64,000 bases of DNA from Gemmatimonadota bacterium (GTDB lineage Bacteria > Gemmatimonadota > Gemmatimonadetes > Palauibacterales > KS3-K002), in contig CP070812.1 in NCBI GenBank assembly GCA_020344015.1, positions 2,068,092-2,132,091 on the forward strand. Reading direction: 5' to 3'. The notes beneath the pieces were generated by a model. The model searched no databases, was not told where the DNA came from, and worked only from the letters and a program-made list of their open reading frames with translations. Below are positions 3,790-38,035 of the stretch, one piece after another. Made by a program: the position numbers and the translations under genes. Numbering within the stretch: the stretch's first letter is position 1; each line of letters starts with the position of its first letter.

Positions 3790-4293
3790 GTGAGTGATCC
3801 CCGACTCCGTGAGATTCTCAATCTTCTCGACCCGCCCGCCGGCAAGCGTCTGTGGTACGGGGGGGCCACAGTGGCTGGAACCCTTCGCGGTGTCACGCCC
3901 GAGCAAGCCGCGTGGAAGCCGACTCGCGAGCGGCACTCGATCTGGGAGTTAACGCTACACCTGGCGTATTGGAAGTACGCGGTACGCCGCAACCTAGAGG
4001 CCTTGCCACAGGGAACGTTTCCACGATCACCGGCCAATTGGCCGGCCGTGCCCAGGCCGGCGGATGCTTCGCATTGGAAGGCGGACCGCAGCTTGCTGCG
4101 GTCGGAGCACGAACAGTTGGTGGACGCCGTGCGGGCGTTTGATCCACGGAGATTGGACGCGGCGGCGCCGGGCAGTGGGAATTATCGGTTCGTGGACCTG
4201 CTATTTGGTGTTGCGAGCCACGATCTCTACCACGTCGGCCAGATACAGCTATTGAAGCGTTTGTACCAGAGCCGGCGCAGACGGTCGCGTTAG
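3790..4293 (+). CDS. DinB-family protein
   Basis: 'WELTLHLAYWKYAV…ASHDLYHVGQIQLLKRL' are DinB_2 motifs. 'GAAGGAGGA' RBS 7 nt before the GTG at 3790. The ORF track opens at 3772. Confidence 0.75.
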   Translation: MSDPRLREILNLLDPPAGKRLWYGGATVAGTLRGVTPEQAAWKPTRERHSIWELTLHLAYWKYAVRRNLEALPQGTFPRSPANWPAVPRPADASHWKADRSLLRSEHEQLVDAVRAFDPRRLDAAAPGSGNYRFVDLLFGVASHDLYHVGQIQLLKRLYQSRRRRSR

Positions 4294-4359
4294 GGTCGGG
4301 TCGTTGCCTACCGAAGCGACTGAACGGTGGCTTTCGCTCACGTTTGCCGTGGAAAGCTG

Positions 4360-5019
4360 ATGCTTGAATCGTCCAGGCGCCCGCTTACTCCAGCGGAGCA
4401 GCGACTTCTAGGCGCCAAGATCCGCGATCTCGAATCGCGCCTGCGTCGGGGGCCGAAGGTTCTGATCCCAGGCGGGGCGGTCCTCGTGATTCTCTGGGCG
4501 CTGACCCTCATCGTCTCGGGGTCATCGTGGCTGATCGTGACCTCCTTCTGGATTGTCGTTGGCACCGGTATCCTCGTTTGGGTCGGGCACGATCTCAAGA
4601 AGGACCTCGGCATCCTTCGCGACATGTTAGGCGAATACGAGTCTGCACGCCGAAGGAACGAAGCCGAGGTGTTCGAGGTCAAGGCGCGTGCCTTTGCAGA
4701 GTTCGAGGAGCTAGAGGACGAGGGCGCGTGCTACGCTTTCGAGATCGCCGGCAATCGGTTGGTCTTCGTCCTCGGGCAGGAGTTCTACCCGCAGGCAAAG
4801 TTCCCAAGTCACGACTTCTCGCTGGTGTACGTCCTGAACGAGCGAGGAGGGCCGGTCGACATGGTTATCGAAAAGCGAGGGCCGAAGGCGCCTCCAGCCC
4901 GAACGATATCGGCGGCCGCCAAACTAGAGCTCGAGGTTCCAGAGCACCTGGAGGTGTTCAACGGCAAGCTCAGCCGAATTGAAGACCTTCTCAGTTCGGC
5001 TCACCGGGGATCGGGATGA
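4360..5019 (+). CDS. Hypothetical membrane protein
   Basis: Two TM helices after the ATG at 4360 (LIPGGAVLVILWALTLIVSGSSWLIVTSFWIVVGTGILVWV), followed by an acidic soluble domain. No family recognised. Confidence 0.45.
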   Translation: MLESSRRPLTPAEQRLLGAKIRDLESRLRRGPKVLIPGGAVLVILWALTLIVSGSSWLIVTSFWIVVGTGILVWVGHDLKKDLGILRDMLGEYESARRRNEAEVFEVKARAFAEFEELEDEGACYAFEIAGNRLVFVLGQEFYPQAKFPSHDFSLVYVLNERGGPVDMVIEKRGPKAPPARTISAAAKLELEVPEHLEVFNGKLSRIEDLLSSAHRGSG

Positions 5020-5050
5020 CTTCCAGCGTTGCGCCGACCGGGAGGTGCTG

Positions 5051-5326
5051 ATGACCTATATGCTGTGTCGCAATCGAGTTGCGGACTTCGGGCGGTGGAA
5101 GGCTGTGTTCGCATCTCACGCGGAGGCCCACAGAGATGCTGGCTTTCGACTGGTCGGTATCTGGCGCGCTCTCGAGGAGCCCAACAACATCTTCTTCATG
5201 TTCGAGCTTGACAGCGTGGAGAAGGCCAGGGCGTTCGTCGGTGATCCCGAGGCCGCCAGAGCCGGAGAAGCTGCGGGCGTCCTCGACGGCGAGTATCACT
5301 TCGTCGAAGATGCGGGAGAGTGCTGA
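5051..5326 (+). CDS. Hypothetical small cytoplasmic protein (alpha+beta barrel-like)
   Basis: 'GGGAGG' RBS before the ATG at 5051. 91 aa. No confident family. Confidence 0.45.
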   Translation: MTYMLCRNRVADFGRWKAVFASHAEAHRDAGFRLVGIWRALEEPNNIFFMFELDSVEKARAFVGDPEAARAGEAAGVLDGEYHFVEDAGEC

Positions 5327-5333
5327 TTTTGCA

Positions 5334-5359
5334 GAGAGCGCTCTCGAGAGAGCGCTCTC
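5334..5359. repeat. Two tandem copies of the 12-bp palindrome GAGAGCGCTCTC between convergent genes
   Basis: GAGAGCGCTCTC-GA-GAGAGCGCTCTC begins 8 nt after the stop of the 5051-5326 gene. Confidence 0.5.
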
Positions 5360-5393
5360 AGTGGGGGCACCAGCATTGAATGAGCGGGCACCG

Positions 5394-5954
5394 CTAGGAT
5401 GGCCACAGCCATCCGAACGTACCGGCCGTCAGCAGCCCGTAAATCAGCCCGTCGAAGGTTGACTTGACCGTCGTGCTCCAGGCGCGTTTCCACCAGATCG
5501 AGTTCTGCCACAGCGCCAACGCATAGCCGACGAACGCGGTGGCTCCGGCGAAACGGAAAACTGCCAGGTATTCGGCACCCGGCCCCAAGGCGCGCCCGGC
5601 GATGTAGGCGGCGAAGATACTCACCACTACACAGTAGCCGAACCACTGCGCCAGGTTCTTCCCCATCGCCGGCGGCCCGTTCGGCATGACCGTGAAGACG
5701 ACGACCGGCCCCTTATTCATCTTCTCGATGAACTCGGGGTTCTTCATATCCTGCGGGCCGATCCCACGGGGGATCATGTAGTCGCCCGGTGGGATCTCGA
5801 ACTTGCGCAGCGCATCCATAAGGTCGTCCTCAGCCGGTACCTTCTTCACGTCGGTACGGTGATACGGGAGGAACATGTGGATGAGCCAGCTCGCTAGGAA
5901 CACGATGACCGCCGACAGGAAGATCGGCAGCCATAAGGACAGGACGGGGACCAT
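5394..5954 (-). CDS. Hypothetical integral membrane protein
   Basis: 'GAGGAGG' RBS 5 nt upstream of the ATG (complement of 5952-5954). Four predicted TM segments. Confidence 0.55.
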   Translation of the reverse strand: MVPVLSLWLPIFLSAVIVFLASWLIHMFLPYHRTDVKKVPAEDDLMDALRKFEIPPGDYMIPRGIGPQDMKNPEFIEKMNKGPVVVFTVMPNGPPAMGKNLAQWFGYCVVVSIFAAYIAGRALGPGAEYLAVFRFAGATAFVGYALALWQNSIWWKRAWSTTVKSTFDGLIYGLLTAGTFGWLWPS

Positions 5955-6115
5955 CGGCACCTCCTCGCGTTTCGCACGGCCATGGCCGCGCTACTATGGC
6001 GCCGGCCGCTGCCCTGGCGCGCAGCCAGCGGTCGGTATTCGGCTCGTTAGTCCTGCGTAGGAAGACTCGAGAATATAGGACCGGCGCGGTGGCGCGCCAC
6101 CCGGCCCTAGCTCGC

Positions 6116-6898
6116 CTACTTCTGCTTGCGGCGTGCGAACTTGAGGCCCGACCACGTCGCGTCGATCGCGCAGATCTTGTAGTCGACCAGGCCGTTGCCC
6201 AGTCCGATGCGTCGCACGTCGTTCTGGCTGAGGTCGGTGGCGACGCCCGACGCCTGTTTCGGCCAAGCGATCCATATCCCGCCATCGCCGACCTTGGTCG
6301 CCAGCACCCCGATCCGACGCTCCAACTCCGCCCGCGATTTGGTGAACCAGATGATCAGGTCGGCCGCGCCGAGCCGGCGTCGCAGCACGACACCGTCGGG
6401 CAAAGCGCCGAGAGTCTTCACGAAATCCGCCGGCGAACCGACCAACGAGACTCTGTACCCCGCCTTTATCCCCAGCTTCTTGACCAGCGGCGTTCCGGAG
6501 TAGCCAGCCAGGTTCGTGGCAGGTACAGCAGGCTCCGTCGGCGGGTTGGCGATGGCCCGCTTCAGCGAGCTACGTATTCGTCGCCACGTAGTGTACTCCG
6601 CATCCGGCAGCAGTTTCTTGACTCCTGCCACCTTCTTCGCGTCGCCTTCCACGAATACGATCGGTATGTGACGTGTAGTTCTTGAACCGCGGATGGCCAG
6701 CGCCACGTCACGGCCGTGCGACGGGATCCGGGTCAGGTCGATGACCACGGCGTCGGGAGGGTTCCGCCTCAGAGCCCTGAGCGTCTCCGGTGTGACCGGT
6801 GCGTTGTTCACGACGTAGCCGGCGGCTCGCAGCGTCGCCGCCCGGTCGCGCGCCTCTCCGACGTTCCAGTGAACCAGTCGTAATCTTCGCTTGGTCAT
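6116..6898 (-). CDS. Hypothetical two-domain protein (degenerate receiver-like N-terminus plus conserved C-terminal DUF)
   Basis: 260-aa ORF. The N-terminus has a CheY-like beta-alpha pattern ('AVVIDLTRIP…IPIVFVEG') but lacks the canonical acidic pocket. Confidence 0.5.
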   Translation of the reverse strand: MTKRRLRLVHWNVGEARDRAATLRAAGYVVNNAPVTPETLRALRRNPPDAVVIDLTRIPSHGRDVALAIRGSRTTRHIPIVFVEGDAKKVAGVKKLLPDAEYTTWRRIRSSLKRAIANPPTEPAVPATNLAGYSGTPLVKKLGIKAGYRVSLVGSPADFVKTLGALPDGVVLRRRLGAADLIIWFTKSRAELERRIGVLATKVGDGGIWIAWPKQASGVATDLSQNDVRRIGLGNGLVDYKICAIDATWSGLKFARRKQK

Positions 6899-28356: not shown

Positions 28357-30603
28357 ATGACGGAGCACTCAGACCGTTTGCGTTCAGCCCTGGCCGACCG
28401 CTACGCCATCGAACACGAGCTGGGTAGCGGCGGTATGGCCGTCGTATACCTCGCCGGCGATCTTCGGCACGACCGCCAGGTAGCTGTGAAAGTCCTCCGT
28501 CCCGAGCTCGCCGCCGCCATGGGTGGGGATCGCTTCCTGCGCGAGATCAAGCTCACCGCGAAGCTCAATCACCCGCACATCCTGCCGTTGCTCGATTCCG
28601 GGGAAGCCGACGGGTTCCTCTACTACGTGATGCCGTACGTGGCGGGCGAGTCGCTGCGGGGACGACTGGAGCGCGAGACCCAGCTCCCTGTGGACGAGGC
28701 GCTGCGCATCACGCAACAGGTGGCCTCGGCCCTGGACTTCGCCCATCGCCAGGACGTGATCCACCGGGACATCAAGCCGGAGAACATCCTGCTCCATGAA
28801 GGCGAAGCGATGGTGGCGGACTTCGGGATCGCGCTGGCGGTGAGCGCGGCGAGAGGCCAGCGGCTGACGGAGACGGGTGTCTCGGTGGGTACGCCGGAGT
28901 ACATGAGCCCAGAGCAGGCGCTGGGCGAGGGGGAGCCGGACGCGCGGAGCGACATCTACAGTCTGGGTTGTGTGCTGTACGAGACGCTGGTGGGCGAGCC
29001 GCCGTACACGGGTCCGACGGCGATGGCGGTGTTGGCGAAGCGGTTGAGCGATCCGGTGCCGAGCGCGCGGCGGTTGCGGGCGGCGATCCCGGAGCCGATG
29101 GACGCGGCGCTGCTGCGGGCGCTGGCGAAGGAGCGTGCCGACCGGTTCGGGAGTGCGGGTGAGTTCGCGGAGGCGTTGGCCGCGGAGGCGGCTGAGGAGA
29201 CGGAGGCGGTGAAGTCGATTGTGGTATTGCCGTTCGAGAATCTGAGCCCCGATCCGGACAACGCGTTCTTCGCAGATGGACTGACGGAGGAGCTGATTGC
29301 CGACCTCTCGAAGCTCCGGGCGCTGCGTGTGATCTCGCGAACCTCGGCGATGGCGTTCAAAGGCACGAGCAAGAAGGTCCCGGAGATCGCGGAGGAGTTA
29401 AACGTTCGGTACGTGTTGGAGGGGAGCGTTCGGCGTGCGGCGAATAGTGTGCGTATCACCGCCCAGCTAATCGAGGCGGCGACGGATGCGCACCTCTGGG
29501 CCGAGAAGTACAGCGGCACGCTGGACGCCGTCTTCGACATGCAGGAGCAGGTGTCCCGAGCGATCGTCGACGCGCTAGAACTGGAATTGACGGGAGTCGA
29601 GGACCGACAGATCGCTAAGCGACCGATCGCAGACGCGCGGGCGTACGACTGCTATCTGAGAGCTCGAGCTGCGATCTGGCATGTTGCGGAGGGAGGTCTT
29701 GATGAGGCCGCGCGAAATTTCGAGGAGGGTCTCGCGATTGTCGGTGATAATGCGCTGCTCTACGCCGGTCTAGCCCATGTCTGGCTCGAGTACGTACGCA
29801 CTTGGATCAAGCACGAAGATGAGCTTGCGAGGGCAGAAGACTATGCCAACAGGGCGCTGAGTCTCGATCCCGACACGGCGCTGGCGTGCGTCGTGTTGGG
29901 AGTCGTCGAGTACCTGCGCGGGAAGGGGAAGGAGGGTCTGCCCTGGCTCAAGCGGGCGCATATTCTGGATCCGAATGACCACGAGATCCACCACTGGTCG
30001 GGCTGGGCTTACATACTAGCGGGAAGGACGTCCAGCGCCTTCCCGCTCGCCCAACGCATGATCGAGCTGGATCCACTCAACCCTCTTAATGTCTTCCTGG
30101 GAATCGTACACTTCTACGCGGGTCAGTTCAACGAGGCCGTCGAGTTGGCGAGCAAGTTCGAGTCGCCGGCGGCACTGGACCTGCCGTGGTATCGATGGTG
30201 GGCAGCCTATTTCCTGGTCTATGCCGAACGCCCGGAAGAAGCGCTGGACCTCCTGGAGCCGATTGAGCGGACGACCGCAACGGACCTTTTCACCCAGAAC
30301 GCTCGATTCTTGCGGTACGCGCTGCGGGGAGAGAGGGATCGGATCCCCGAGTTATTGACCGATACTTTCGTGGCGCAGGAGCGGAGAGACGCGGCGGTGT
30401 CTTGTTGGGCCGCAACGTGCTACGCGATGCTCGACGACTACCAGCAGGCGCTCGACTGGCTCGAGAACGCCGTGGACCGCGGGTTTCTCAACTACCCCTA
30501 TCTCGCCGAGCACGACCCTTTCCTGGCCAAGTTCCGCGATGAACCGCAGTTCAAGGAACTAATGGTCCGCGTGAAACGCGAATGGGAGCAGCTTGAGGTT
30601 TAG
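28357..30603 (+). CDS. Ser/Thr protein kinase with C-terminal TPR/tetratricopeptide-like domain
   Basis: 'LGSGGMAVVYLA…AVKVL', 'HRDIKPENILL', 'DFGIA', 'GTPEYMSPEQ' Hanks subdomains. 748 aa with a TPR-like tail. Confidence 0.85.
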   Translation: MTEHSDRLRSALADRYAIEHELGSGGMAVVYLAGDLRHDRQVAVKVLRPELAAAMGGDRFLREIKLTAKLNHPHILPLLDSGEADGFLYYVMPYVAGESLRGRLERETQLPVDEALRITQQVASALDFAHRQDVIHRDIKPENILLHEGEAMVADFGIALAVSAARGQRLTETGVSVGTPEYMSPEQALGEGEPDARSDIYSLGCVLYETLVGEPPYTGPTAMAVLAKRLSDPVPSARRLRAAIPEPMDAALLRALAKERADRFGSAGEFAEALAAEAAEETEAVKSIVVLPFENLSPDPDNAFFADGLTEELIADLSKLRALRVISRTSAMAFKGTSKKVPEIAEELNVRYVLEGSVRRAANSVRITAQLIEAATDAHLWAEKYSGTLDAVFDMQEQVSRAIVDALELELTGVEDRQIAKRPIADARAYDCYLRARAAIWHVAEGGLDEAARNFEEGLAIVGDNALLYAGLAHVWLEYVRTWIKHEDELARAEDYANRALSLDPDTALACVVLGVVEYLRGKGKEGLPWLKRAHILDPNDHEIHHWSGWAYILAGRTSSAFPLAQRMIELDPLNPLNVFLGIVHFYAGQFNEAVELASKFESPAALDLPWYRWWAAYFLVYAERPEEALDLLEPIERTTATDLFTQNARFLRYALRGERDRIPELLTDTFVAQERRDAAVSCWAATCYAMLDDYQQALDWLENAVDRGFLNYPYLAEHDPFLAKFRDEPQFKELMVRVKREWEQLEV

Positions 30604-30607
30604 AGCG

Positions 30608-32068
30608 ATGACTACGCCACCGGAACGGGACCAAACGATAGAACGTCGCGGCGAGCGGGCGCTGCTGGTGGCGGTAGAAGGCCAGAAAGGGACGGCGCGG
30701 TTCGTCGGAAACTGCCGCATCGGTCGCGCGCCGGATAACGACCTTGTCATCGAGTCGCGCTCGGTGAGCCTCTACCACGCCGAGGCCGTGCTTGAGGGCG
30801 GAAGCTGGCAGCTGCGTGACTTGGGCAGCACGAACGGAACCGTAGTCTCCGGCCAGCGGATCGATCGCATCACTCTGGGTGGGCCGACGCGCGTGCACCT
30901 AGGTTTCGAGGGCCCGAGGCTGACGCTGACGCCCGAGGGCCTGGAGGGGATGGCGGAAGCCGAGCCGACGCTCGTGCCGTCGGAGAGCGCCATCGTGAGG
31001 CGCTACTTCGCGCCGCGTGCGCCGAAGAACATTGGGACTCATACTGCGGCGCTGCGCCGAGCGTTCGCCAATATACAGAGACGACGCACTCATAAGTACG
31101 CGGCAGCGCTCCTGGCCGTCGCGACGTTCGGTCTGGCCGCCGGCAGCTACGCCTACCTACTACACAAACGGATGCAGAGGCAACGCTCCGCGGCGGAGAG
31201 CTTGTTCTATGCCTCGAAGGACATCGAACTCGCGCTCGCCAAATTGGAGGGCAGCGGGGACGAGCGGCAGGCTCAGCAGGCACGCCACGCCGAGTTCGAA
31301 AAACAGTATCAGGACTTTCTGAAAGAACTCGGCATCTACAGTGACGCGACACCGGAAGAAGTGCAGCTGGTCTACCGGGTGGCGCACCGGTTCGGCGAGT
31401 CGGAGGTCAACGTTCCGCAGGATTTCGTGGACGCGGTTCTCACCTACGTCAGACTTTGGAAGACATCGCCGCGGCTTGAGGATGCCATGGAGCGGGCGCA
31501 GCGCAACGGCTACGGCCAGCGGATCGCCAAAACGATGCTGGAGCACGGCCTGCCACCCGAGTTCTTCTACCTCGCATTGCAGGAAAGCGATCTACGAGTG
31601 GAGGCGACGGGTCCCGAGACGCGGTACGGGATCGCCAAAGGGATGTGGCAGTTCGTGCCGGGGACCGCGCGCGACTACGGTCTCAAGACGGGTCCTCTGG
31701 TGGGAGTCAGACGGCCTGATTCCCTGGACGAGCGGCACGACTTCGAGAAGTCGACGCGGGCGGCGGCGCGCTACCTGCGGCGGATCTACACGACCGACGC
31801 TCAAGCATCGGGCCTTCTGGTGATCGCGTCGTACAACTGGGGCGAATCGAACATCCTGCGGCTGGTCCGCTCGCTGCCCGAGAACCCGCATGAGCGTAAC
31901 TTCTGGCGACTGCTCGACAAGTACCGCGAGCAAATTCCGCAGGAGACCTACGACTATGTCTTCAGCATAGTCTCGGCCGCGGTCATCGGCGAGGACCCGG
32001 AGCTTTTCGGGTTCGATTTCGACCCGCCCTACGACCGTCCTGAGATCGTAGCGGCCAGCGGAGACTAG
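30608..32068 (+). CDS. FHA domain - TM - lytic transglycosylase (SLT) domain protein
   Basis: N-terminal FHA ('GRAPDNDLVI…LRDLGSTNGTVVSGQRI'). One TM helix. C-terminal SLT domain ('ETRYGIAKGMWQFVPGTARDYGL', 'SYNWGESNI'). Starts 5 nt after the kinase stop. Confidence 0.75.
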   Translation: MTTPPERDQTIERRGERALLVAVEGQKGTARFVGNCRIGRAPDNDLVIESRSVSLYHAEAVLEGGSWQLRDLGSTNGTVVSGQRIDRITLGGPTRVHLGFEGPRLTLTPEGLEGMAEAEPTLVPSESAIVRRYFAPRAPKNIGTHTAALRRAFANIQRRRTHKYAAALLAVATFGLAAGSYAYLLHKRMQRQRSAAESLFYASKDIELALAKLEGSGDERQAQQARHAEFEKQYQDFLKELGIYSDATPEEVQLVYRVAHRFGESEVNVPQDFVDAVLTYVRLWKTSPRLEDAMERAQRNGYGQRIAKTMLEHGLPPEFFYLALQESDLRVEATGPETRYGIAKGMWQFVPGTARDYGLKTGPLVGVRRPDSLDERHDFEKSTRAAARYLRRIYTTDAQASGLLVIASYNWGESNILRLVRSLPENPHERNFWRLLDKYREQIPQETYDYVFSIVSAAVIGEDPELFGFDFDPPYDRPEIVAASGD

Positions 32069-32089: not shown

Positions 32090-34747
32090 CTATAGCGACT
32101 CGAAGCGTCCCTGGAAGAAGCGCAACTTCGATGGCTCGTAGACGAACTTGAGTCCCTTGATCTCCTCTCTGCGGTCGTAAACGCGTCGGATCCCTTCCGC
32201 CACCGCCTTCATGTGATCGTTGGTGTAGACGCGACGCGGGATGGTAAGCCGCACCAGCTCGAGCGCCGGCCGGTAGTTGGCGCCGGTTTCGGGATTGCGG
32301 CCCTTCGACACGTTGCCGCGCTCCATCGCCCGCACCCCGGTCTCGACGTAGATCTCCGCCGCCAGCCGCTGGGCGGGGAACTCGTCCTGGTCGATCTGGG
32401 GCAGGAAACGCTTTGCGTCGAGGAAGATGGCGTGGCTGCCCGGGGGCGTGACGATGGGGATGCCCAGCTCGAGCAGCAGCTCGCCGAGATACTGGGTCTG
32501 CTCGACGCGTGAGCGGATGTAGCGGTCGTCGACCATCTCTTCTATCCCGCGTGCGATGGCCGCCAGGTCGGCGGTGGATAGGCCGCCGTCGGAGATGTTG
32601 CCCTCGTAGATGCGGAGCAGCTCGTGGGCCTTCTGGGCCAGGTCCGCGTTTTCCCGGAAACAAAGCACACCGCCGATGTTGATCAGGAAATCCTTCTTGC
32701 CGCTGACCGTGCAGCCGTCGCCGTAGAGCATCATCTCGCGGATGATGTCCTTTACCTTGGTCTTGTGGTAGCGGGCATCACGGCTCTGGATCATGTAGGC
32801 GTTTTCGGCGAAGCGGGTAGCGTCGAAGAACACCGGGATGCCCACCGCACTGCAGTACTCGTAGACTTCCTTCATGTTGTCCATGCTGGCCGGCTGACCG
32901 CCGGCCATGTTGACAGAATGCTCGAACGAGAGGTAGGCGATCTTCTGGGCGCCGTGCTCGTCGACCAGCGCTCTGAGCTTGTCGAGGTCGATGTTCCCCT
33001 TCCATTGGAACTCGCTCTCCGGGTTGTGCGCATCGTCGACGATGACGTCGACGAAGACGCCGCCGGCCATCTCCTGGTGCAGCTTGGTGGTCGTGAAGTA
33101 CATGTTGCCCGGCACCAGCTGGCCGTCCTTGATGCAGATCTGGCTGAGGATGTGCTCGGCGGCCCGTCCCTGGTGCGTGGGAATGATGTGATCGTAGCCG
33201 GTAACGTCCTGGAGGACCTCGACCAGGCGGCGGTACTCAGCGCTCATGGTCGTGCTGGCGCGCACGCCCTCGTAGGCGGCCCACTGGTCGGTGCTCATCG
33301 CCGATGTGCCCGAGTCGGTGAGCAGGTCGATGGCGACGTCGGCCGAGCGCAGCAGGAACGTGTTGTACCCGGCGGCGCGGATCGCCTTCTCGCGGTGGCC
33401 GCGGGTGAGTGCACCCACCTTCTCGATCGTGTGGATCGTGTAAGGGAAGGTGTCGAAGGAGAAGGGCTCGAGTGTGGGATAGACCCAGGTGTACTGCATC
33501 TGGTCGCGCCAGCTGCCGATGACCGACGCCTGTAGCCCGGTCACTTTATCGCGCTGTGCGAAGAGGCTGATGATGGCGTCGGCCACCTGATCAAGCTGAT
33601 CGGTGGTCATCGCCTGACGCGGGAGCTGCACCGGCAGCAAGTTGTCGCGACCAACCAGCCCCTGCGCGGTAGCTCGCACACCCGACATCAGGTAGAGGGC
33701 GGCTGACAACGTGTCCTGCTGGTGGACTTTCACGTGGGGCAGGAATTCGTCGGCCATGATGTAGGCGCCGTCGCAGCCGCGCTCGAGCGGCACGCCGCCG
33801 TCTCGCAGCCGCTGCGTGAAGCGCTCGGTCTGATACATGTCCCAGTGCACCTCGTCCTCGTCGCACATCTCCATGATGCCGCGGGCGAGGACCTCCATCG
33901 TGCGGCCGGCCATGCCGCCGTAGGTGTGCAGGCCCTCGAAGACGACGACCTCGTTCATGAATTTCTCGTGGTCGTCGGGGTTGTCGGTGACGAGGATGCC
34001 GCCGGTGTTGCACTTGGGATCCTGGGCGCCGTCCATCAAGAAGATGTGGCAGGTCTTGGCTATCTGTTTCACGAGGTCGGCGATCGAGCGGTCGGCCTGA
34101 CCCGGCTCGTGCTGCTGGATGTACCAGGCGTTCTCGATGACGCGCGAGCCGTCGCAGATCAACCGCTTGCCGTACTTATCTGCCAGAGCTCGGACGCCGC
34201 GCAGGTTCTCGAGGCTGAACGGGTGCTGCCCGTCGGCGAAGGCCTGGATGCCGACGAACGCCACGCTATGTGCCTTGAGGGTCTGTTCCAGCTTACCCAG
34301 GTCCATGTCGCCGGTGAAGACGGGCTGCTCGCGGTCCCGCGTGTCGGGGTACTGGATGCCTAGAGGATCCAAAACATCCAGTTTGGTGCGGGCGTTGCTC
34401 GGCACGACAGATCCAAGCGGCACCATGGTCGTAACGATCAGCTTGACCGAGCCCAGGTTGTTGTGTGTGGGACATACGTAGGTGTGACCGAGAACCTCGC
34501 GGACCGCCGTCTCGAGCGCCTCGAAGTTCCGGGAACCGGCGTAGGCCTCGTCGCCGATGAACTGGCCGGCCAGCTGTTCCTGGCTGAGTGCATTGGTACC
34601 CAGCGAGCACATGTCGAACGTGACCTGCCCGGGCGTCAGGTTCCAGACGTTGAAGTCGGCTTCGGCAAGGTATTTCTTTCGCTCGTCGAGCTTTGGCCAG
34701 GACAAGAGGCGGACGGTCTTGATCTTGTGCGGTTCGTGATTCGCCAT
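32090..34747 (-). CDS. Tandem-fused beta-eliminating lyase (tryptophanase/tyrosine phenol-lyase family), 885 aa
   Basis: The C-terminal half (aa ~430-885) aligns along its full length with TnaA/Tpl ('FLLRSADVAIDLLTDSGT', 'IPTHQGRAAE', 'NMAGGQP', 'VSGKKDFLINIGGVLC', 'RLTIPRRVYT'). The N-terminal half is a diverged second copy ('CPTHNNLGS', 'MDGAQDPKCNTGGIL') in which the PLP-Lys position appears substituted. Confidence 0.75.
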   Translation of the reverse strand: MANHEPHKIKTVRLLSWPKLDERKKYLAEADFNVWNLTPGQVTFDMCSLGTNALSQEQLAGQFIGDEAYAGSRNFEALETAVREVLGHTYVCPTHNNLGSVKLIVTTMVPLGSVVPSNARTKLDVLDPLGIQYPDTRDREQPVFTGDMDLGKLEQTLKAHSVAFVGIQAFADGQHPFSLENLRGVRALADKYGKRLICDGSRVIENAWYIQQHEPGQADRSIADLVKQIAKTCHIFLMDGAQDPKCNTGGILVTDNPDDHEKFMNEVVVFEGLHTYGGMAGRTMEVLARGIMEMCDEDEVHWDMYQTERFTQRLRDGGVPLERGCDGAYIMADEFLPHVKVHQQDTLSAALYLMSGVRATAQGLVGRDNLLPVQLPRQAMTTDQLDQVADAIISLFAQRDKVTGLQASVIGSWRDQMQYTWVYPTLEPFSFDTFPYTIHTIEKVGALTRGHREKAIRAAGYNTFLLRSADVAIDLLTDSGTSAMSTDQWAAYEGVRASTTMSAEYRRLVEVLQDVTGYDHIIPTHQGRAAEHILSQICIKDGQLVPGNMYFTTTKLHQEMAGGVFVDVIVDDAHNPESEFQWKGNIDLDKLRALVDEHGAQKIAYLSFEHSVNMAGGQPASMDNMKEVYEYCSAVGIPVFFDATRFAENAYMIQSRDARYHKTKVKDIIREMMLYGDGCTVSGKKDFLINIGGVLCFRENADLAQKAHELLRIYEGNISDGGLSTADLAAIARGIEEMVDDRYIRSRVEQTQYLGELLLELGIPIVTPPGSHAIFLDAKRFLPQIDQDEFPAQRLAAEIYVETGVRAMERGNVSKGRNPETGANYRPALELVRLTIPRRVYTNDHMKAVAEGIRRVYDRREEIKGLKFVYEPSKLRFFQGRFESL

Positions 34748-34968: not shown

Positions 34969-36207
34969 ATGCAGCAGTCACTGACTATGGGTGGGAACAC
35001 TCTTCCGCGGTTTCTCAGCTTCTTATCCGGCATTGGCATGGCGGTCTTCTCGATAATGACGATCGACCACTATTATTCCGCCAACTATCCGGAGTCGATC
35101 TTCGAGGGCTCGTTCTGCGATATAAGCGCTTTCTTCAACTGTGACAGCTCGGCCTACGCGGCAATTTCTGCGATCGGAGGTGTGCCGCTCGGCTACTTCG
35201 GCCTGGTCGTCGGAGCGCTGGTGGCACTGGGCGTGGTTCTGCCGTCGCTGAGCTTCGAGAGAACGAACAAGGCGATCTCGCTGCTCAACGCGGTCGGCGT
35301 TGTCGCCCTCTTCATCTATACGGTCTTCTTCCTGGGCAGCCTTTGCCTGCTATGCACTGGATTCTACGTGTTCTCCCTAGTCAGCTTCTTCCTGTTCTGG
35401 AAGCACGGTGTCGACAGAGAGTTGGGATTCCTGGCCGACTGGTTCCGACCGTCGGTCAAGTTACTGGCGACGTTCGCCGCGCTGGGTCTGTTCGGGGCCT
35501 ACGCCTTCACGTTCTACACCGATGCGAGGCAACTCGCACAGTCGGGCGGGGTGGCGACGCGGGCCGTAAAGGAGTTCTACAATCTGGAGCCAGTGGAATG
35601 GCCGAGCTTCATCTCGCCGCTCTGGACGGCGCAGTCGACCGAGCACTTCGAGGACGCACCGATCCGGATCGTGGAATACGGGGATCTGCTCTGCTCCGAT
35701 TGTCTGATACTGTATAGGCAACTGAACGAGCTGAAAGCCGAGTTCGAGGGGAAGATCAACATCGCCTTCCAAATGTTCCCGCTCGAGGCCCAGTGCAACG
35801 ACGTTGTGGAGAAGGACCTGCACCCCGGCGCCTGCGATGTGTCGTACATGGCGGCGTACGATCCGGACAAGTTCGTGGCGATCCACGATGAGATCTTCGA
35901 GAACCTCCGGCTGGCGAAGCGGCAGGCGGAATGGCGGGCCGATCTGGCCCGGCGTTTCGACGTGGAGGCAGCGCTCACCGACTCGGCGACCATCGCTCTG
36001 GTCGACCGCATGATCCAGACCGGCCGCGAATACGAGAAGACGCACGAGCGCTTCTCGTATGGCATCAGGTCAACGCCGACGATGATCGTCAACAACCGGA
36101 TGATCATCGGAACGCTGCCGATCGAGCAGTTGCGCGCCGTATTCCAGGCGCTGGTCGATGAGCACGAGTCCGGCGAGCGTCGGTTTATCGAGAACTGGGA
36201 AGAGTAG
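34969..36207 (+). CDS. Vitamin K epoxide reductase (VKOR)-DsbA/thioredoxin-like fusion protein
   Basis: N-terminal five-TM VKOR domain with 'CDISAFFNC' loop cysteines and 'CLLC' in a TM helix. C-terminal thioredoxin-fold domain with 'CSDC'. Confidence 0.75.
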   Translation: MQQSLTMGGNTLPRFLSFLSGIGMAVFSIMTIDHYYSANYPESIFEGSFCDISAFFNCDSSAYAAISAIGGVPLGYFGLVVGALVALGVVLPSLSFERTNKAISLLNAVGVVALFIYTVFFLGSLCLLCTGFYVFSLVSFFLFWKHGVDRELGFLADWFRPSVKLLATFAALGLFGAYAFTFYTDARQLAQSGGVATRAVKEFYNLEPVEWPSFISPLWTAQSTEHFEDAPIRIVEYGDLLCSDCLILYRQLNELKAEFEGKINIAFQMFPLEAQCNDVVEKDLHPGACDVSYMAAYDPDKFVAIHDEIFENLRLAKRQAEWRADLARRFDVEAALTDSATIALVDRMIQTGREYEKTHERFSYGIRSTPTMIVNNRMIIGTLPIEQLRAVFQALVDEHESGERRFIENWEE

Positions 36208-36224
36208 GGCTAACGGAGGTGGGT

Positions 36225-36638
36225 ATGATCGACGGAGTTGGCGGCGCGTTTGTCTTTTCGAACGATGCGGGACGACTGGCCGACTGGTACTGCCACTACC
36301 TCGGGATGGAGTTCGAGGGATCGGGCGAGGCCTTTTACATAATGTACTGGGGGCTCGACCCGGAAGATCACTCGCGGAAGCTCGATACCACGTTCTCGAT
36401 TATGCAGGCGAAGGTGGAACTGCCGCAGCGCGGCGACGGCAGCGAACCGGATGACATGTACGGCGACCAGCCGTTCATGGTGAACCTGCGGGTGCGTGAC
36501 ATAGATGCGGTCCTGGAGCATCTGGCGAAAAACGGTGTCGAGCCGATAAAGCGGGAAGAGTACGATTACGGTCGCTTCGCCTGGATCCGCGATCTGGATG
36601 GTAACCGCGTAGAGCTGTACCAGCCGCTGCACAGTTGA
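36225..36638 (+). CDS. VOC-family (glyoxalase) protein
   Basis: 'GAFVFSNDAGRLADWY' and 'MVNLRVRDIDAVLEHL' VOC motifs. Confidence 0.7.
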   Translation: MIDGVGGAFVFSNDAGRLADWYCHYLGMEFEGSGEAFYIMYWGLDPEDHSRKLDTTFSIMQAKVELPQRGDGSEPDDMYGDQPFMVNLRVRDIDAVLEHLAKNGVEPIKREEYDYGRFAWIRDLDGNRVELYQPLHS

Positions 36639-38035
36639 TGATGCCGGACTGGGCCCTCGCCGTACTCGATCCCCTCGCGGTCGCGGTCGGCCTGGGTTTC
36701 TTCATGGCTCTGGCCTATGCTGGGCTGGTCTCGGCGCGTGAGAAAGAGCCACGCGCCGTCTTCGTCTCGTCGTTGCTCGCCGTGATCCTTTCGGCTCCAT
36801 ATCTGTTGCTGGGACTCTCCGATCTGGAAGGAAGGTCGGGCGTCAGTGTAGGGCTCCTGCTGTTGACCGGCGCGGCCGGGCTGGCGCTGGTAATCCCATC
36901 GGGAAAGAAGCGCATCACCGAGGACGACACGCCGAGGGGCCGAATCGACGAGCGTGACATCATGTTCTCGAGGAACTTGTTGGAGCCGGGCACAGCGCGG
37001 TTCGAGGAGTACTACGCGGCCAATCCAGAGAAGCGGGCGGTGGACGATGCGTTCAGAGCGCTGCCGGGCCTCTTGGCGGAAGGGTCGACTATGTACGACC
37101 CGTACGCCTACGCGGCCGCCGGAGCGACGGAGGCGACGGTCGAGTATCTGAGGCCGCTGGTGGAGGGAGGGGTCGCGACCGAGCCTACCGTTACCGATCC
37201 GGTGGAGATCATGGGGTTCATCAAAGGCTGGACGCTCAAGCAGGGGGCCATATCGGTCGGTGTGACGGAGCTCAGGGATTACCACACGTACAGCACGGTG
37301 GGGCGCGGAGATGATTACGGCCGGCCGGTCGAGCTGGATCACGACTACGCCATTGCGTTCACGACCGAGATGTCGAGAGAGATGGTTGCCGGCGCGCCCA
37401 AAGCCTCCATCGTGATGGAGTCGTACCAACAGTACCTGGCCACGGGCGCCATTGCGATACAGTTGGCGAAGCTGATCCGCGGCTTGGGCTACTCCGCCAG
37501 GGCGCACGTGGATGGCAACTATCGTGTCGTGTGCCCGCTGGTTGCCCGGGACGCCGGTCTGGGCGAGATCGGTCGCATGGGCCTGCTGATGACTCCGGAG
37601 CTGGGCCCGCGTGTGCGGCTCGCCGTTGTCACCACCGAGATGCCGTTGGTGGCCGACGAGCGAAGCTTGGACTACACGATGATCGACTTCTGCGCGCGCT
37701 GTAAGAAATGCGCGGAGATTTGCCCCGCCCAAGCGATCCCGTCAGGTGATCGCGAGATGATCGACGGGGTACGTCGCTGGCAGATCGATCAGGAGGCCTG
37801 CTTCACTCTGTGGTGCCAGATCGGTACGGACTGCGGCCGTTGCGTCTCCGTGTGTCCCTACTCACACCCGAACAACCTGCTTCACAACCTGGTCCGGCTG
37901 GGAGTGCGCAACTCGTCTCTGTTCCGCAGGCTGGCGATAAAGGCGGATGACCTGTTCTACGGGAAGCGACCGCCAAGCGCGGAGCTGCCGGATTGGATGC
38001 GGATGAACCCGATCGCCGAGGATTCGTCTAGTTAG
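36635..38035 (+). CDS. Reductive-dehalogenase/QueG-superfamily Fe-S protein with N-terminal three-helix membrane anchor
   Basis: 'ARDAGLGEIGRMGLLMTPELGPRVRLAVVTTEMPL' is the RdhA/QueG conserved core. Two ferredoxin-type clusters 'CARCKKCAEICP' and 'CFTLWCQIGTDCGRCVSVCP'. Three N-terminal TM helices. No Tat signal. Confidence 0.7.
   Translation: MMMPDWALAVLDPLAVAVGLGFFMALAYAGLVSAREKEPRAVFVSSLLAVILSAPYLLLGLSDLEGRSGVSVGLLLLTGAAGLALVIPSGKKRITEDDTPRGRIDERDIMFSRNLLEPGTARFEEYYAANPEKRAVDDAFRALPGLLAEGSTMYDPYAYAAAGATEATVEYLRPLVEGGVATEPTVTDPVEIMGFIKGWTLKQGAISVGVTELRDYHTYSTVGRGDDYGRPVELDHDYAIAFTTEMSREMVAGAPKASIVMESYQQYLATGAIAIQLAKLIRGLGYSARAHVDGNYRVVCPLVARDAGLGEIGRMGLLMTPELGPRVRLAVVTTEMPLVADERSLDYTMIDFCARCKKCAEICPAQAIPSGDREMIDGVRRWQIDQEACFTLWCQIGTDCGRCVSVCPYSHPNNLLHNLVRLGVRNSSLFRRLAIKADDLFYGKRPPSAELPDWMRMNPIAEDSSS

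Follow-up and report, generated by a model that had tools for sequence, protein, structure and literature searches.

Within a 64,000-nucleotide stretch of the genome of a Gemmatimonadota bacterium (contig CP070812.1; the whole stretch is referred to below as the window), a gene on the minus strand codes for an 885-aa protein built from two fused domains of the tyrosine phenol-lyase (TPL) type, which we call the N-half and the C-half for the N- and C-terminal domain copies. The two halves have lost complementary sets of active-site residues. The N-half keeps what a TPL subunit gives to its partner and the C-half keeps what a subunit uses itself, which argues for one composite site rather than for an intact enzyme carrying a dead passenger. 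Judging from the sequences, the protein is therefore probably a pseudo-heterodimer made of a single chain, in which both halves contribute to one composite TPL active site. The chain is ~98 kDa, with one pyridoxal phosphate (PLP) site predicted from sequence. The gene and its two halves lie as follows.

32090..34747, minus strand: whole gene for the 885-aa fused double beta-eliminating lyase, stop codon included (list of open reading frames; two Beta_elim_lyase stretches; at least 120 full-length homologues of ~885 aa).
33464..34747, minus strand: N-half, residues 1–428, a PLP-dead TPL-like domain that keeps the trans-donated residues (Pfam E = 2e-24; 1C7G E = 2e-59; residue table; ratio of nonsynonymous to synonymous substitution rates, dN/dS, 0.06–0.33).
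32093..33463, minus strand: C-half, residues 429–885, predicted catalytic TPL domain, cis residues 20/20 and trans residues 0/9 (TIGR02618 864.7 bits; 1C7G E = 6e-159).

The initial annotation had described a tandem fusion of 885 aa in which the N-terminal ~430 aa are a diverged second copy of the same fold, and both statements hold. An open reading frame (ORF) occupies exactly 32090..34747 on the minus strand, and Pfam family PF01212 (Beta_elim_lyase, fold-type I PLP enzymes) matches its product in two stretches, with 318.7 bits over the whole protein. Searched alone, the N-half still matches Beta_elim_lyase with 86.9 bits (E = 2e-24; cutoff 27) and aligns by HMMER over nearly its full length to the TPL structure 1C7G (E = 2e-59). 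The two halves share 25% identity (E = 2e-34). The C-half shares 52.8% identity with C. freundii TPL, hits solved TPL structures at E ~1e-158 (6e-159 for 1C7G) and scores 864.7 bits against the TPL equivalog TIGR02618, above its curated cutoff of 720.7; it falls below the cutoffs of both tryptophanase equivalogs, TIGR02617 and NF053783 (601.9 against 825.8 and 672.2 against 750). Against the TPL equivalog the N-half reaches 244.8 bits, under the cutoff. A G-rich Shine-Dalgarno-like stretch lies upstream of the ATG of the 885-aa ORF, and no further TPL-like sequence was found within the window.

TPL (EC 4.1.99.2) converts L-tyrosine and water to phenol, pyruvate and NH4+. In the family of tyrosine-splitting enzymes and tryptophanases the active site sits between the subunits of a 'catalytic dimer' (PMC10170061). 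In TPL, Lys257 binds PLP, Tyr71 is the general acid, Arg381 is the general base and Thr124 fixes the phenol hydroxyl (PMC10170061). In tryptophan indole-lyase (TIL), Tyr72* is supplied by the other chain of the catalytic dimer and the indole ring is bound by Asp-133 and His-458 (PMC11301627). In E. coli tryptophanase, Tyr74 and Tyr307 form bonds to the phosphate of the PLP in the adjacent subunit, and a Y74F mutant has negligible activity (PMC2770544). By residue count, E. coli Tyr307 (in FPTY) corresponds to TPL Tyr291 (in MPSY). The catalytic dimer of canonical TPL and tryptophanase consists of two identical subunits and has two sites; each draws on PLP- and substrate-binding residues of its own subunit (cis) and, from the other subunit (trans), on Tyr71, which protonates the leaving ring, and on Tyr291, which bonds the PLP phosphate. 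Our assignment of residues acting in trans is based on these tryptophanase and TIL structure papers, and residue numbers are those of C. freundii TPL, taken from HMMER alignments. For the comparison, 121 family members were split into halves and each half was aligned to TPL.

In the C-half, the residues acting in cis are all in place. Thr49, Asp50, Ser51, Gly52, Gln98, Gly99, Arg100, Phe123, Thr124, Asn185, Asp214, Thr216, Arg217, Ser254, Lys256, Lys257, Asn262, Met379, Glu380, Arg381, Arg404, Phe448 and Phe449 are kept in 121/121 proteins, and all 20 of the same-subunit PLP and substrate residues that we checked are present in every member. These include an intact PLP set in 121/121, consisting of the Schiff-base Lys257, Asp214 (pyridine nitrogen) and the phosphate binders Gln98, Gly99, Arg100 and Ser254. 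The trans set is replaced throughout. The run Asp68-Glu69-Ala70-Tyr71-Ala72-Gly73 reads RASTTM in the window protein (Asp68 to Arg, Glu69 to Ala, Tyr71 to Thr), with Val283 changed to Arg, Met288 to Asn and Tyr291 to Asp, and not one of the 121 family members has a Tyr at position 71 of the C-half. The C-half had earlier been taken for a complete lyase with the motif VSGKKD; the motif is there, but the domain is not complete, as Tyr71, Glu69 and Tyr291 are missing. The corresponding segments of the C-half are:

32690..32707, minus strand: VSGKKD (residues 681–686), intact Schiff-base lysine motif, Lys256/Lys257 (alignment; PMC10170061).
33086..33103, minus strand: MYFTTT (residues 549–554), with Phe123, which stacks on PLP, and Thr124, a TPL specificity residue (alignment).
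32315..32332, minus strand: RAMERG (residues 806–811), specificity residues Met379, Glu380 and Arg381 (alignment; role of Arg381, PMC10170061).
32108..32125, minus strand: LRFFQG (residues 875–880), Phe448/Phe449 of the substrate pocket (alignment; PMC10170061).
33242..33283, minus strand: WAAYEGVRASTTMS (residues 489–502), degenerate trans loop, Asp68 to Arg, Glu69 to Ala, Tyr71 to Thr (HMMER against 1C7G/1TPL; Tyr absent in 121/121).
32582..32608, minus strand: YEGNISDGG (residues 714–722), degenerate Tyr291 loop, Met288 to Asn and Tyr291 to Asp (alignment).

The N-half shows the reciprocal pattern. Its trans residues Asp68, Glu69, Tyr71, Ala72, Gly73, Val283 and Tyr291 are invariant (121/121). 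The PLP lysine, which was already suspected to be substituted, is indeed gone: MDGAQD aligns to MSGKKD, placing Gln at Lys257 (in 121/121) and Ala at Lys256, with further changes of Arg100 to Leu and Ser254 to Asp; Phe123, Thr124, Asn185, Arg381 and Arg404 are not conserved. The view of the protein as a covalent pseudo-dimer of which one protomer is dead would have been contradicted by an alignment in which the N-half retained the PLP lysine together with the catalytic residues; instead the N-half lacks Lys257, Lys256, Arg100, Phe123, Thr124, Asn185, Ser254, Arg381 and Arg404, in support of it. Independent HMMER alignments agree with every call of kept or lost residues in both halves; only at positions 123, 124, 185 and 404, which are deleted or gapped, does the exact substitute vary with the aligner used. 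The corresponding segments of the N-half are:

34532..34555, minus strand: GDEAYAGS (residues 65–72), kept Asp68/Glu69/Tyr71 loop, predicted to provide the general acid for the C-half site (Asp, Glu and Tyr in 121/121; present in every fused lineage).
33914..33937, minus strand: EGLHTYGG (residues 271–278), kept equivalent of Tyr291, which hydrogen-bonds the phosphate of the partner's PLP (Tyr in 121/121; PMC2770544).
34019..34036, minus strand: MDGAQD (residues 238–243), degenerate PLP-lysine motif, Ser254 to Asp, Lys256 to Ala, Lys257 to Gln (HMMER against 1C7G; Gln in 121/121).
34451..34471, minus strand: PTHNNLG (residues 93–99), degenerate phosphate-binding motif aligning to PTHQGRG, Gln98 to Asn, Gly99 to Asn, Arg100 to Leu (HMMER alignment).

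The earlier interpretation was thus right yet incomplete: the C-half is degenerate too, in exactly the complementary residues. Tyr71 and Tyr291, which a self-sufficient homodimer would carry in the same domain, are both present in the N-half and both lacking in the C-half. This pattern bears on the possibility that the protein assembles homotypically, through C:C and N:N pairs, with the N-half a structural or regulatory appendage that has no catalytic part. Canonical TPL and tryptophanase are homo-oligomers, and AlphaFold2 is unsure at the interface loops, both of which would fit such an assembly. A C:C dimer, however, would be without Tyr71 and Tyr291 in both of its sites, and the mutation equivalent to the loss of Tyr71 leaves E. 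coli tryptophanase with negligible activity (Y74F; PMC2770544). Homotypic pairing also leaves unexplained the strict conservation of DEAYAG and Tyr291, across fused lineages down to 35% identity, in a domain that has no PLP pocket. We consider it quite unlikely.

The same division of residues was observed in more distant fused proteins. When 1.84 billion cluster representatives were searched exhaustively with HMMER, further fused representatives of 850–930 aa were recovered, which we divided into group A (P0121, P0123–P0126, P0128 and P0130; 43–52% identity) and group B (P0132, P0134, P0137 and P0138; 864–909 aa, 35–37% identity). Every group A C-half has 20/20 cis residues and only 0–4 of the 9 trans residues; every group A N-half has 8/9 trans residues and only 3–9 of the 20 cis residues. 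The residues of the dead site vary among the fused lineages, with Lys257 replaced by Gln, Glu or Asp, Arg404 by Pro, Gly, Ala, Asn or Phe, and position 217 of the N-half occupied by Arg, Tyr, Gln, His, Gly or Asn. The trans loop of the C-half differs between lineages as well (RASTTM, DESPAG, AEAETG and others). Since both the dead-site residues and this loop differ by lineage, constraint appears to be relaxed on the dead site and absolute on the live one.

Group B is not of the TPL type, having Val or Leu at Arg381. Its N-halves retain Lys257, three of the four retain most of the pocket, and among the fused lineages examined only P0132 and P0137, both of this group, keep Tyr71 in the C-half. 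Group B proteins could represent fusions with two sites, or else intermediate stages in the same course of degeneration. Two other proteins, P0147 (706 aa) and P0162 (625 aa), carry a TPL/tryptophanase-like catalytic domain with its own DESYAG and TYGG, so that Tyr71 and Tyr291 are kept. We had expected the relic N-terminal extension of these two to keep the Tyr71 loop, but the loop is absent from it. The extension is 190–250 aa long, follows a hydrophobic signal-like start, and resembles this fold weakly and only in its N-terminal arm and in parts of its small domain; it may represent a different kind of partial internal duplication. Taken together, group A, group B and the relic extensions indicate that a C-half loses Tyr71 only when a complete, Tyr71-bearing and lysine-less N-half is attached.

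In a neighbour-joining tree (distance-based and midpoint-rooted, so that deep placements are tentative), group A C-halves form one clade adjoining the canonical TPLs, group A N-halves group together, and group B lies apart. Sub-groupings of the N- and C-halves partly match, with the close family joined by P0121 and with P0125, P0128 and P0130 together. This tree is consistent with one old duplication-fusion followed by co-divergence of the halves.

We also scanned for the partition without choosing residues beforehand. The scan covered the 44 alignment positions at which conservation reaches 90% or more among 46 canonical single-domain enzymes, and scored them in 38 N-halves and 38 C-halves of TPL-type fused proteins, distant lineages included. 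Both halves keep 19 of the 44, mostly Gly and other likely structural residues, and no position is lost in both. Fourteen are kept in the C-half only: Thr49, Asp50, Ser51, Gln98, Arg100, Glu103, Phe123, Asn185, Gly189, Ser254, Lys257, Pro339, Arg404 and Arg410. These are mostly known residues of the PLP and substrate pocket, the exceptions being Glu103, Gly189, Pro339 and Arg410, which we could not place from the literature consulted. Three positions are kept in the N-half only, namely Asp68, Tyr71 and Tyr291, and Phe154 comes close (0.89 vs 0.11). The remaining eight are intermediate (Gly99, Thr125, Phe154, Pro191, Ser193, Asp214, Arg217 and Asn221).

The residues that now fill the dead pocket raise the possibility that the former PLP pocket now serves a new function in ligand sensing or allostery, and that this is the main reason why the N-half has been retained. 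Throughout the close family the substitutes are near-invariant (Leu100, Asp254, Ala256, Gln257 and Pro404 in 118–121/121), and purifying selection on the N-half is strong. Against this, pocket positions 257, 404 and 217 all differ between distant fused lineages, which looks like decay, and the substrate-pocket positions 99, 379 and 381 are variable even inside the close family. As the main reason for keeping the N-half, an allosteric function seems to us unlikely; it could, though, coexist with a role as trans donor. The initial annotation had further proposed altered regulation or substrate scope, for which we found no support: Thr124, Arg381, Phe448, Phe449 and Met379 of the C-half are invariant, and the dead pocket varies between distant lineages.

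The fusion itself is authentic. A search of 5.8 billion proteins returned at least 120 full-length proteins of ~885 aa with 74–97% identity, from many independent assemblies, and when GTDB was scanned with one genome for each species, 119 loci proved to encode a relative. The 80 loci that were listed cover essentially the whole query, except for a few truncated where their contig ends. Every one of the 80 is from a metagenome-assembled genome (MAG), mostly of Gemmatimonadota (Gemmatimonadales and Longimicrobiales), with Myxococcota, Acidobacteriota, Eisenbacteria, Planctomycetota and a few other phyla also represented; the nearest match among those listed, at 95% identity, is from a Gemmatimonadota MAG. 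Nei-Gojobori dN/dS values against 11 orthologues were 0.06–0.33 for the N-half and 0.07–0.24 for the C-half, and mean pairwise identity was 74% and 81%, respectively. Both halves are under purifying selection, and the N-half is not decaying.

These data answer the concern that the gene is an artefact or a pseudogene, in which an assembly or frameshift error joined two adjacent genes or a duplicate is in decay. A relative at locus L001 is indeed split by a frameshift at the junction. In the window gene, though, the junction between the halves is a continuous, in-frame reading frame, dN/dS is well below 1 in both halves, and the uninterrupted architecture is shared by the full-length proteins from independent assemblies and by 119 species genomes, so that an assembly artefact is refuted; we give the idea next to no credence.

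We looked for orthologues split into two genes and found no convincing split form. P0254 (L001, ENA contig_29850, 3968–6740) was considered and rejected; it consists of overlapping ORFs of 540 and 549 aa on a long-read-style contig and is a fused gene with a junction frameshift. The break is probably a long-read indel error, the alternative being a genuine split or recoding event. P0129 (455 aa) spans the N-half and the first residues of the C-half and is assumed to be a truncated fragment. P0146 (461 aa, L002:481–1866) was likewise set aside, being a divergent stand-alone protein without the Tyr71 loop whose upstream ORF is unrelated. This TPL-like protein keeps Lys257, Thr124, Arg381 and Phe448/449, has GSSSQA in place of the Tyr71 loop, lacks Tyr291, and shows Lys256 changed to Asn and Arg217 to His. 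Its short contig carries no partner gene; a chemoreceptor gene (MCPsignal) lies downstream.

Public databases name the 885-aa proteins 'tryptophanase' (NCBI) or 'tyrosine phenol-lyase' (JGI). Of the two names, TPL is the one supported by the residue signature (Thr124, Arg381 and Phe448) and by the scores against the equivalogs. A different substrate is conceivable, either tryptophan, in accord with the NCBI name, or Cys and Ser derivatives whose good leaving groups do not need Tyr71; TPL and TIL both act on derivatives of Ser and Cys as a side activity (PMC10170061). Where the C-half has Thr124, Arg381 and Phe448, however, the tryptophanase-like proteins P0143 and P0145 have Asp, Ile and His; the positions of the indole-binding Asp-133 and His-458 are thus taken by Thr and Phe in the C-half, which lies above the TPL equivalog cutoff and below both tryptophanase cutoffs. 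Retention of Tyr71 in trans further suggests that a poor leaving group still requires protonation. A substrate other than tyrosine therefore has, in our estimate, little chance of being the right answer.

We propose the following for the pseudo-heterodimer. An ancestral TPL gene would have been duplicated in tandem and fused, and the copies would then have degenerated complementarily. The C-half would keep the full cis pocket and bind PLP at Lys685 (equivalent to Lys257), and the N-half would insert its trans residues Tyr69 (Tyr71 in TPL), Tyr276 (Tyr291) and Glu67 (Glu69) into that pocket. There, Tyr69 would protonate C-gamma of the leaving phenol, Tyr276 would bond the PLP phosphate and Glu67 would complete the cation site. 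The reciprocal site, formed by the N-half pocket and the C-half loops, would be dead on both sides, leaving one composite active site per N:C pair. Two chains probably associate, giving a pseudo-tetramer with two sites instead of four.

The sequences themselves show the homology of the domains, how the active-site residues are partitioned, the conservation and covariation of that partition, purifying selection and the phyletic distribution. We infer the N:C interface and its pairing geometry, intrachain or swapped, from the residue pattern; the same pattern suggests PLP binding and its stoichiometry, TPL activity with its substrate, and the oligomeric state. An AlphaFold2 model based on a 57-sequence alignment has a mean predicted local distance difference test (pLDDT) score of 79.8 and a predicted template-modelling (pTM) score of 0.72, and both halves fold in it as alpha/beta PLP-type domains. 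In per-chain comparisons by Foldseek, one half of the model superposes on TPL structures with template-modelling (TM) scores of 0.92–0.93. Among the 50 best PDB matches there is no chain with two domains of the beta-eliminating lyase family.

Several points weigh against the composite site. The confidence of the AlphaFold2 model is below 50 at the trans loops (63–73 and 272–281) and at the junction (436–444). The N-half matches TPL through residue 438 of 456 (query 406) and the C-half begins at TPL residue 3 (query 431); the junction supplies only a few residues beyond the TPL-equivalent termini, which puts in question whether it can span a catalytic dimer within one chain. The dead pocket is strongly conserved within the close family, in particular Asp254 and Gln257, and this could mask a secondary role, although it differs between distant lineages. 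Finally, Glu69 enters the scheme as a residue that we take to be a trans ligand of the activating K+ site in TPL.

The genomic context gave no functional clue. The gene is convergent with a gene for an FHA/SLT-domain protein and divergent from a VKOR-DsbA fusion gene. When flanking ORFs from 81 loci were clustered, no neighbour was conserved beyond close relatives, the VKOR-DsbA gene being present in 15 loci; the large clusters of flanking ORFs were antisense ORFs inside the 885-aa gene itself. With no neighbour conserved across the 81 loci, the gene behaves as a stand-alone catabolic gene. A scan for promoters and terminators gave no promoter-like sites, and terminator-like sites were at chance level.

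Two groups of neighbouring genes were noted in passing. At 28357–32068 on the plus strand of the window, two genes overlap by 11 nt, one for a Ser/Thr protein kinase (748 aa) that includes a long TPR region and, downstream of it, the FHA-SLT (lytic transglycosylase) gene, which suggests a kinase/FHA signalling pair tied to cell-wall remodelling. At 34969–38035, also on the plus strand, lie genes for a VKOR-thioredoxin/DsbA fusion (412 aa), a glyoxalase-fold protein (139 aa) and a 466-aa membrane-anchored 4Fe-4S dicluster protein, which we judge to resemble a reductive dehalogenase or a QueG-type enzyme. These three genes co-occur in the closest relatives (9–15 of 81 loci).

Canonical TPL (PDB 2TPL and 1C7G; C. 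freundii and E. herbicola) resembles the C-half in its fold and in all residues that bind PLP, the carboxylate and the phenol. It differs in being a homotetramer of 456-aa subunits (~51 kDa) with four equivalent sites, each subunit carrying both cis and trans residues. In the window protein the cis and trans sets are divided between two fused, non-identical domains, and one site per pair is expected. A comparable logic is known from the eukaryotic serine palmitoyltransferase (SPT) SPT1/SPT2 (LCB1/LCB2), which needs its lysine-less partner and presumably has just one active site (PMC6148460). By analogy, the 885-aa protein appears to follow the same logic, as its lysine-less half keeps the donated residues and both halves are under selection. 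SPT1/SPT2, however, are eukaryotic alpha-oxoamine synthases made of two separate membrane-associated polypeptides, and only the fold type is shared.

Another parallel is the Coccolithovirus (EhV) SPT, which a passage in PMC5371807, citing Han et al. 2006, presents as a natural single-gene fusion of lysine-less and lysine-bearing fold-type-I paralogues that is split in some strains. It belongs to another enzyme family, is of viral or eukaryotic origin and joins paralogues that pre-existed separately, whereas no convincing split form of the TPL fusion was found. In the Serratia aminotransferase Ser4/Ser5 (SerTA), a lysine-less partner provides needed residues, there is one site per heterodimer, and the tetramer comprises two heterodimers (PMC11726168). 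That system differs in having two genes, a dead partner truncated to the large domain, aminotransferase chemistry and a location in a biosynthetic cluster.

We found no description of a fused or duplicated TPL or tryptophanase in the literature searched, which does not prove that none has been published. A 2026 tryptophanase-mining study explicitly dropped sequences outside 400–600 aa (PMC12980246), and filters of this kind exclude 885-aa fusions. What we describe is a new and unusually well-documented instance of an evolutionary principle that is already known, in an enzyme that is known as well; neither new chemistry nor a new fold is established by it.

A more far-reaching picture, which we put forward tentatively and think somewhat doubtful, is that these proteins form a widespread, undescribed class of asymmetric TPLs that are obligate two-site pseudo-tetramers. 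Their dead site might have been reused, as a plug in which Asp254 mimics the phosphate or as an allosteric pocket, so that Gemmatimonadota and Myxococcota of soil and sediment would produce phenol in a regulated or half-of-sites manner, and the group B fusions that retain Lys257 in both halves might then represent intermediates.

The fusion offers a clean natural example of a symmetric homo-oligomeric enzyme turned asymmetric, preserved in more than 100 species. As a natural scaffold it would also allow mutation of what is contributed in cis to one TPL site separately from what is contributed in trans, which is impossible in a homodimer. Such a scaffold would be useful because TPL is employed in industry as a catalyst for making L-DOPA and tyrosine analogues (PMC10170061). 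For the organisms themselves, the genes for the 885-aa proteins suggest that uncultured Gemmatimonadota and Myxococcota catabolise tyrosine with production of phenol.

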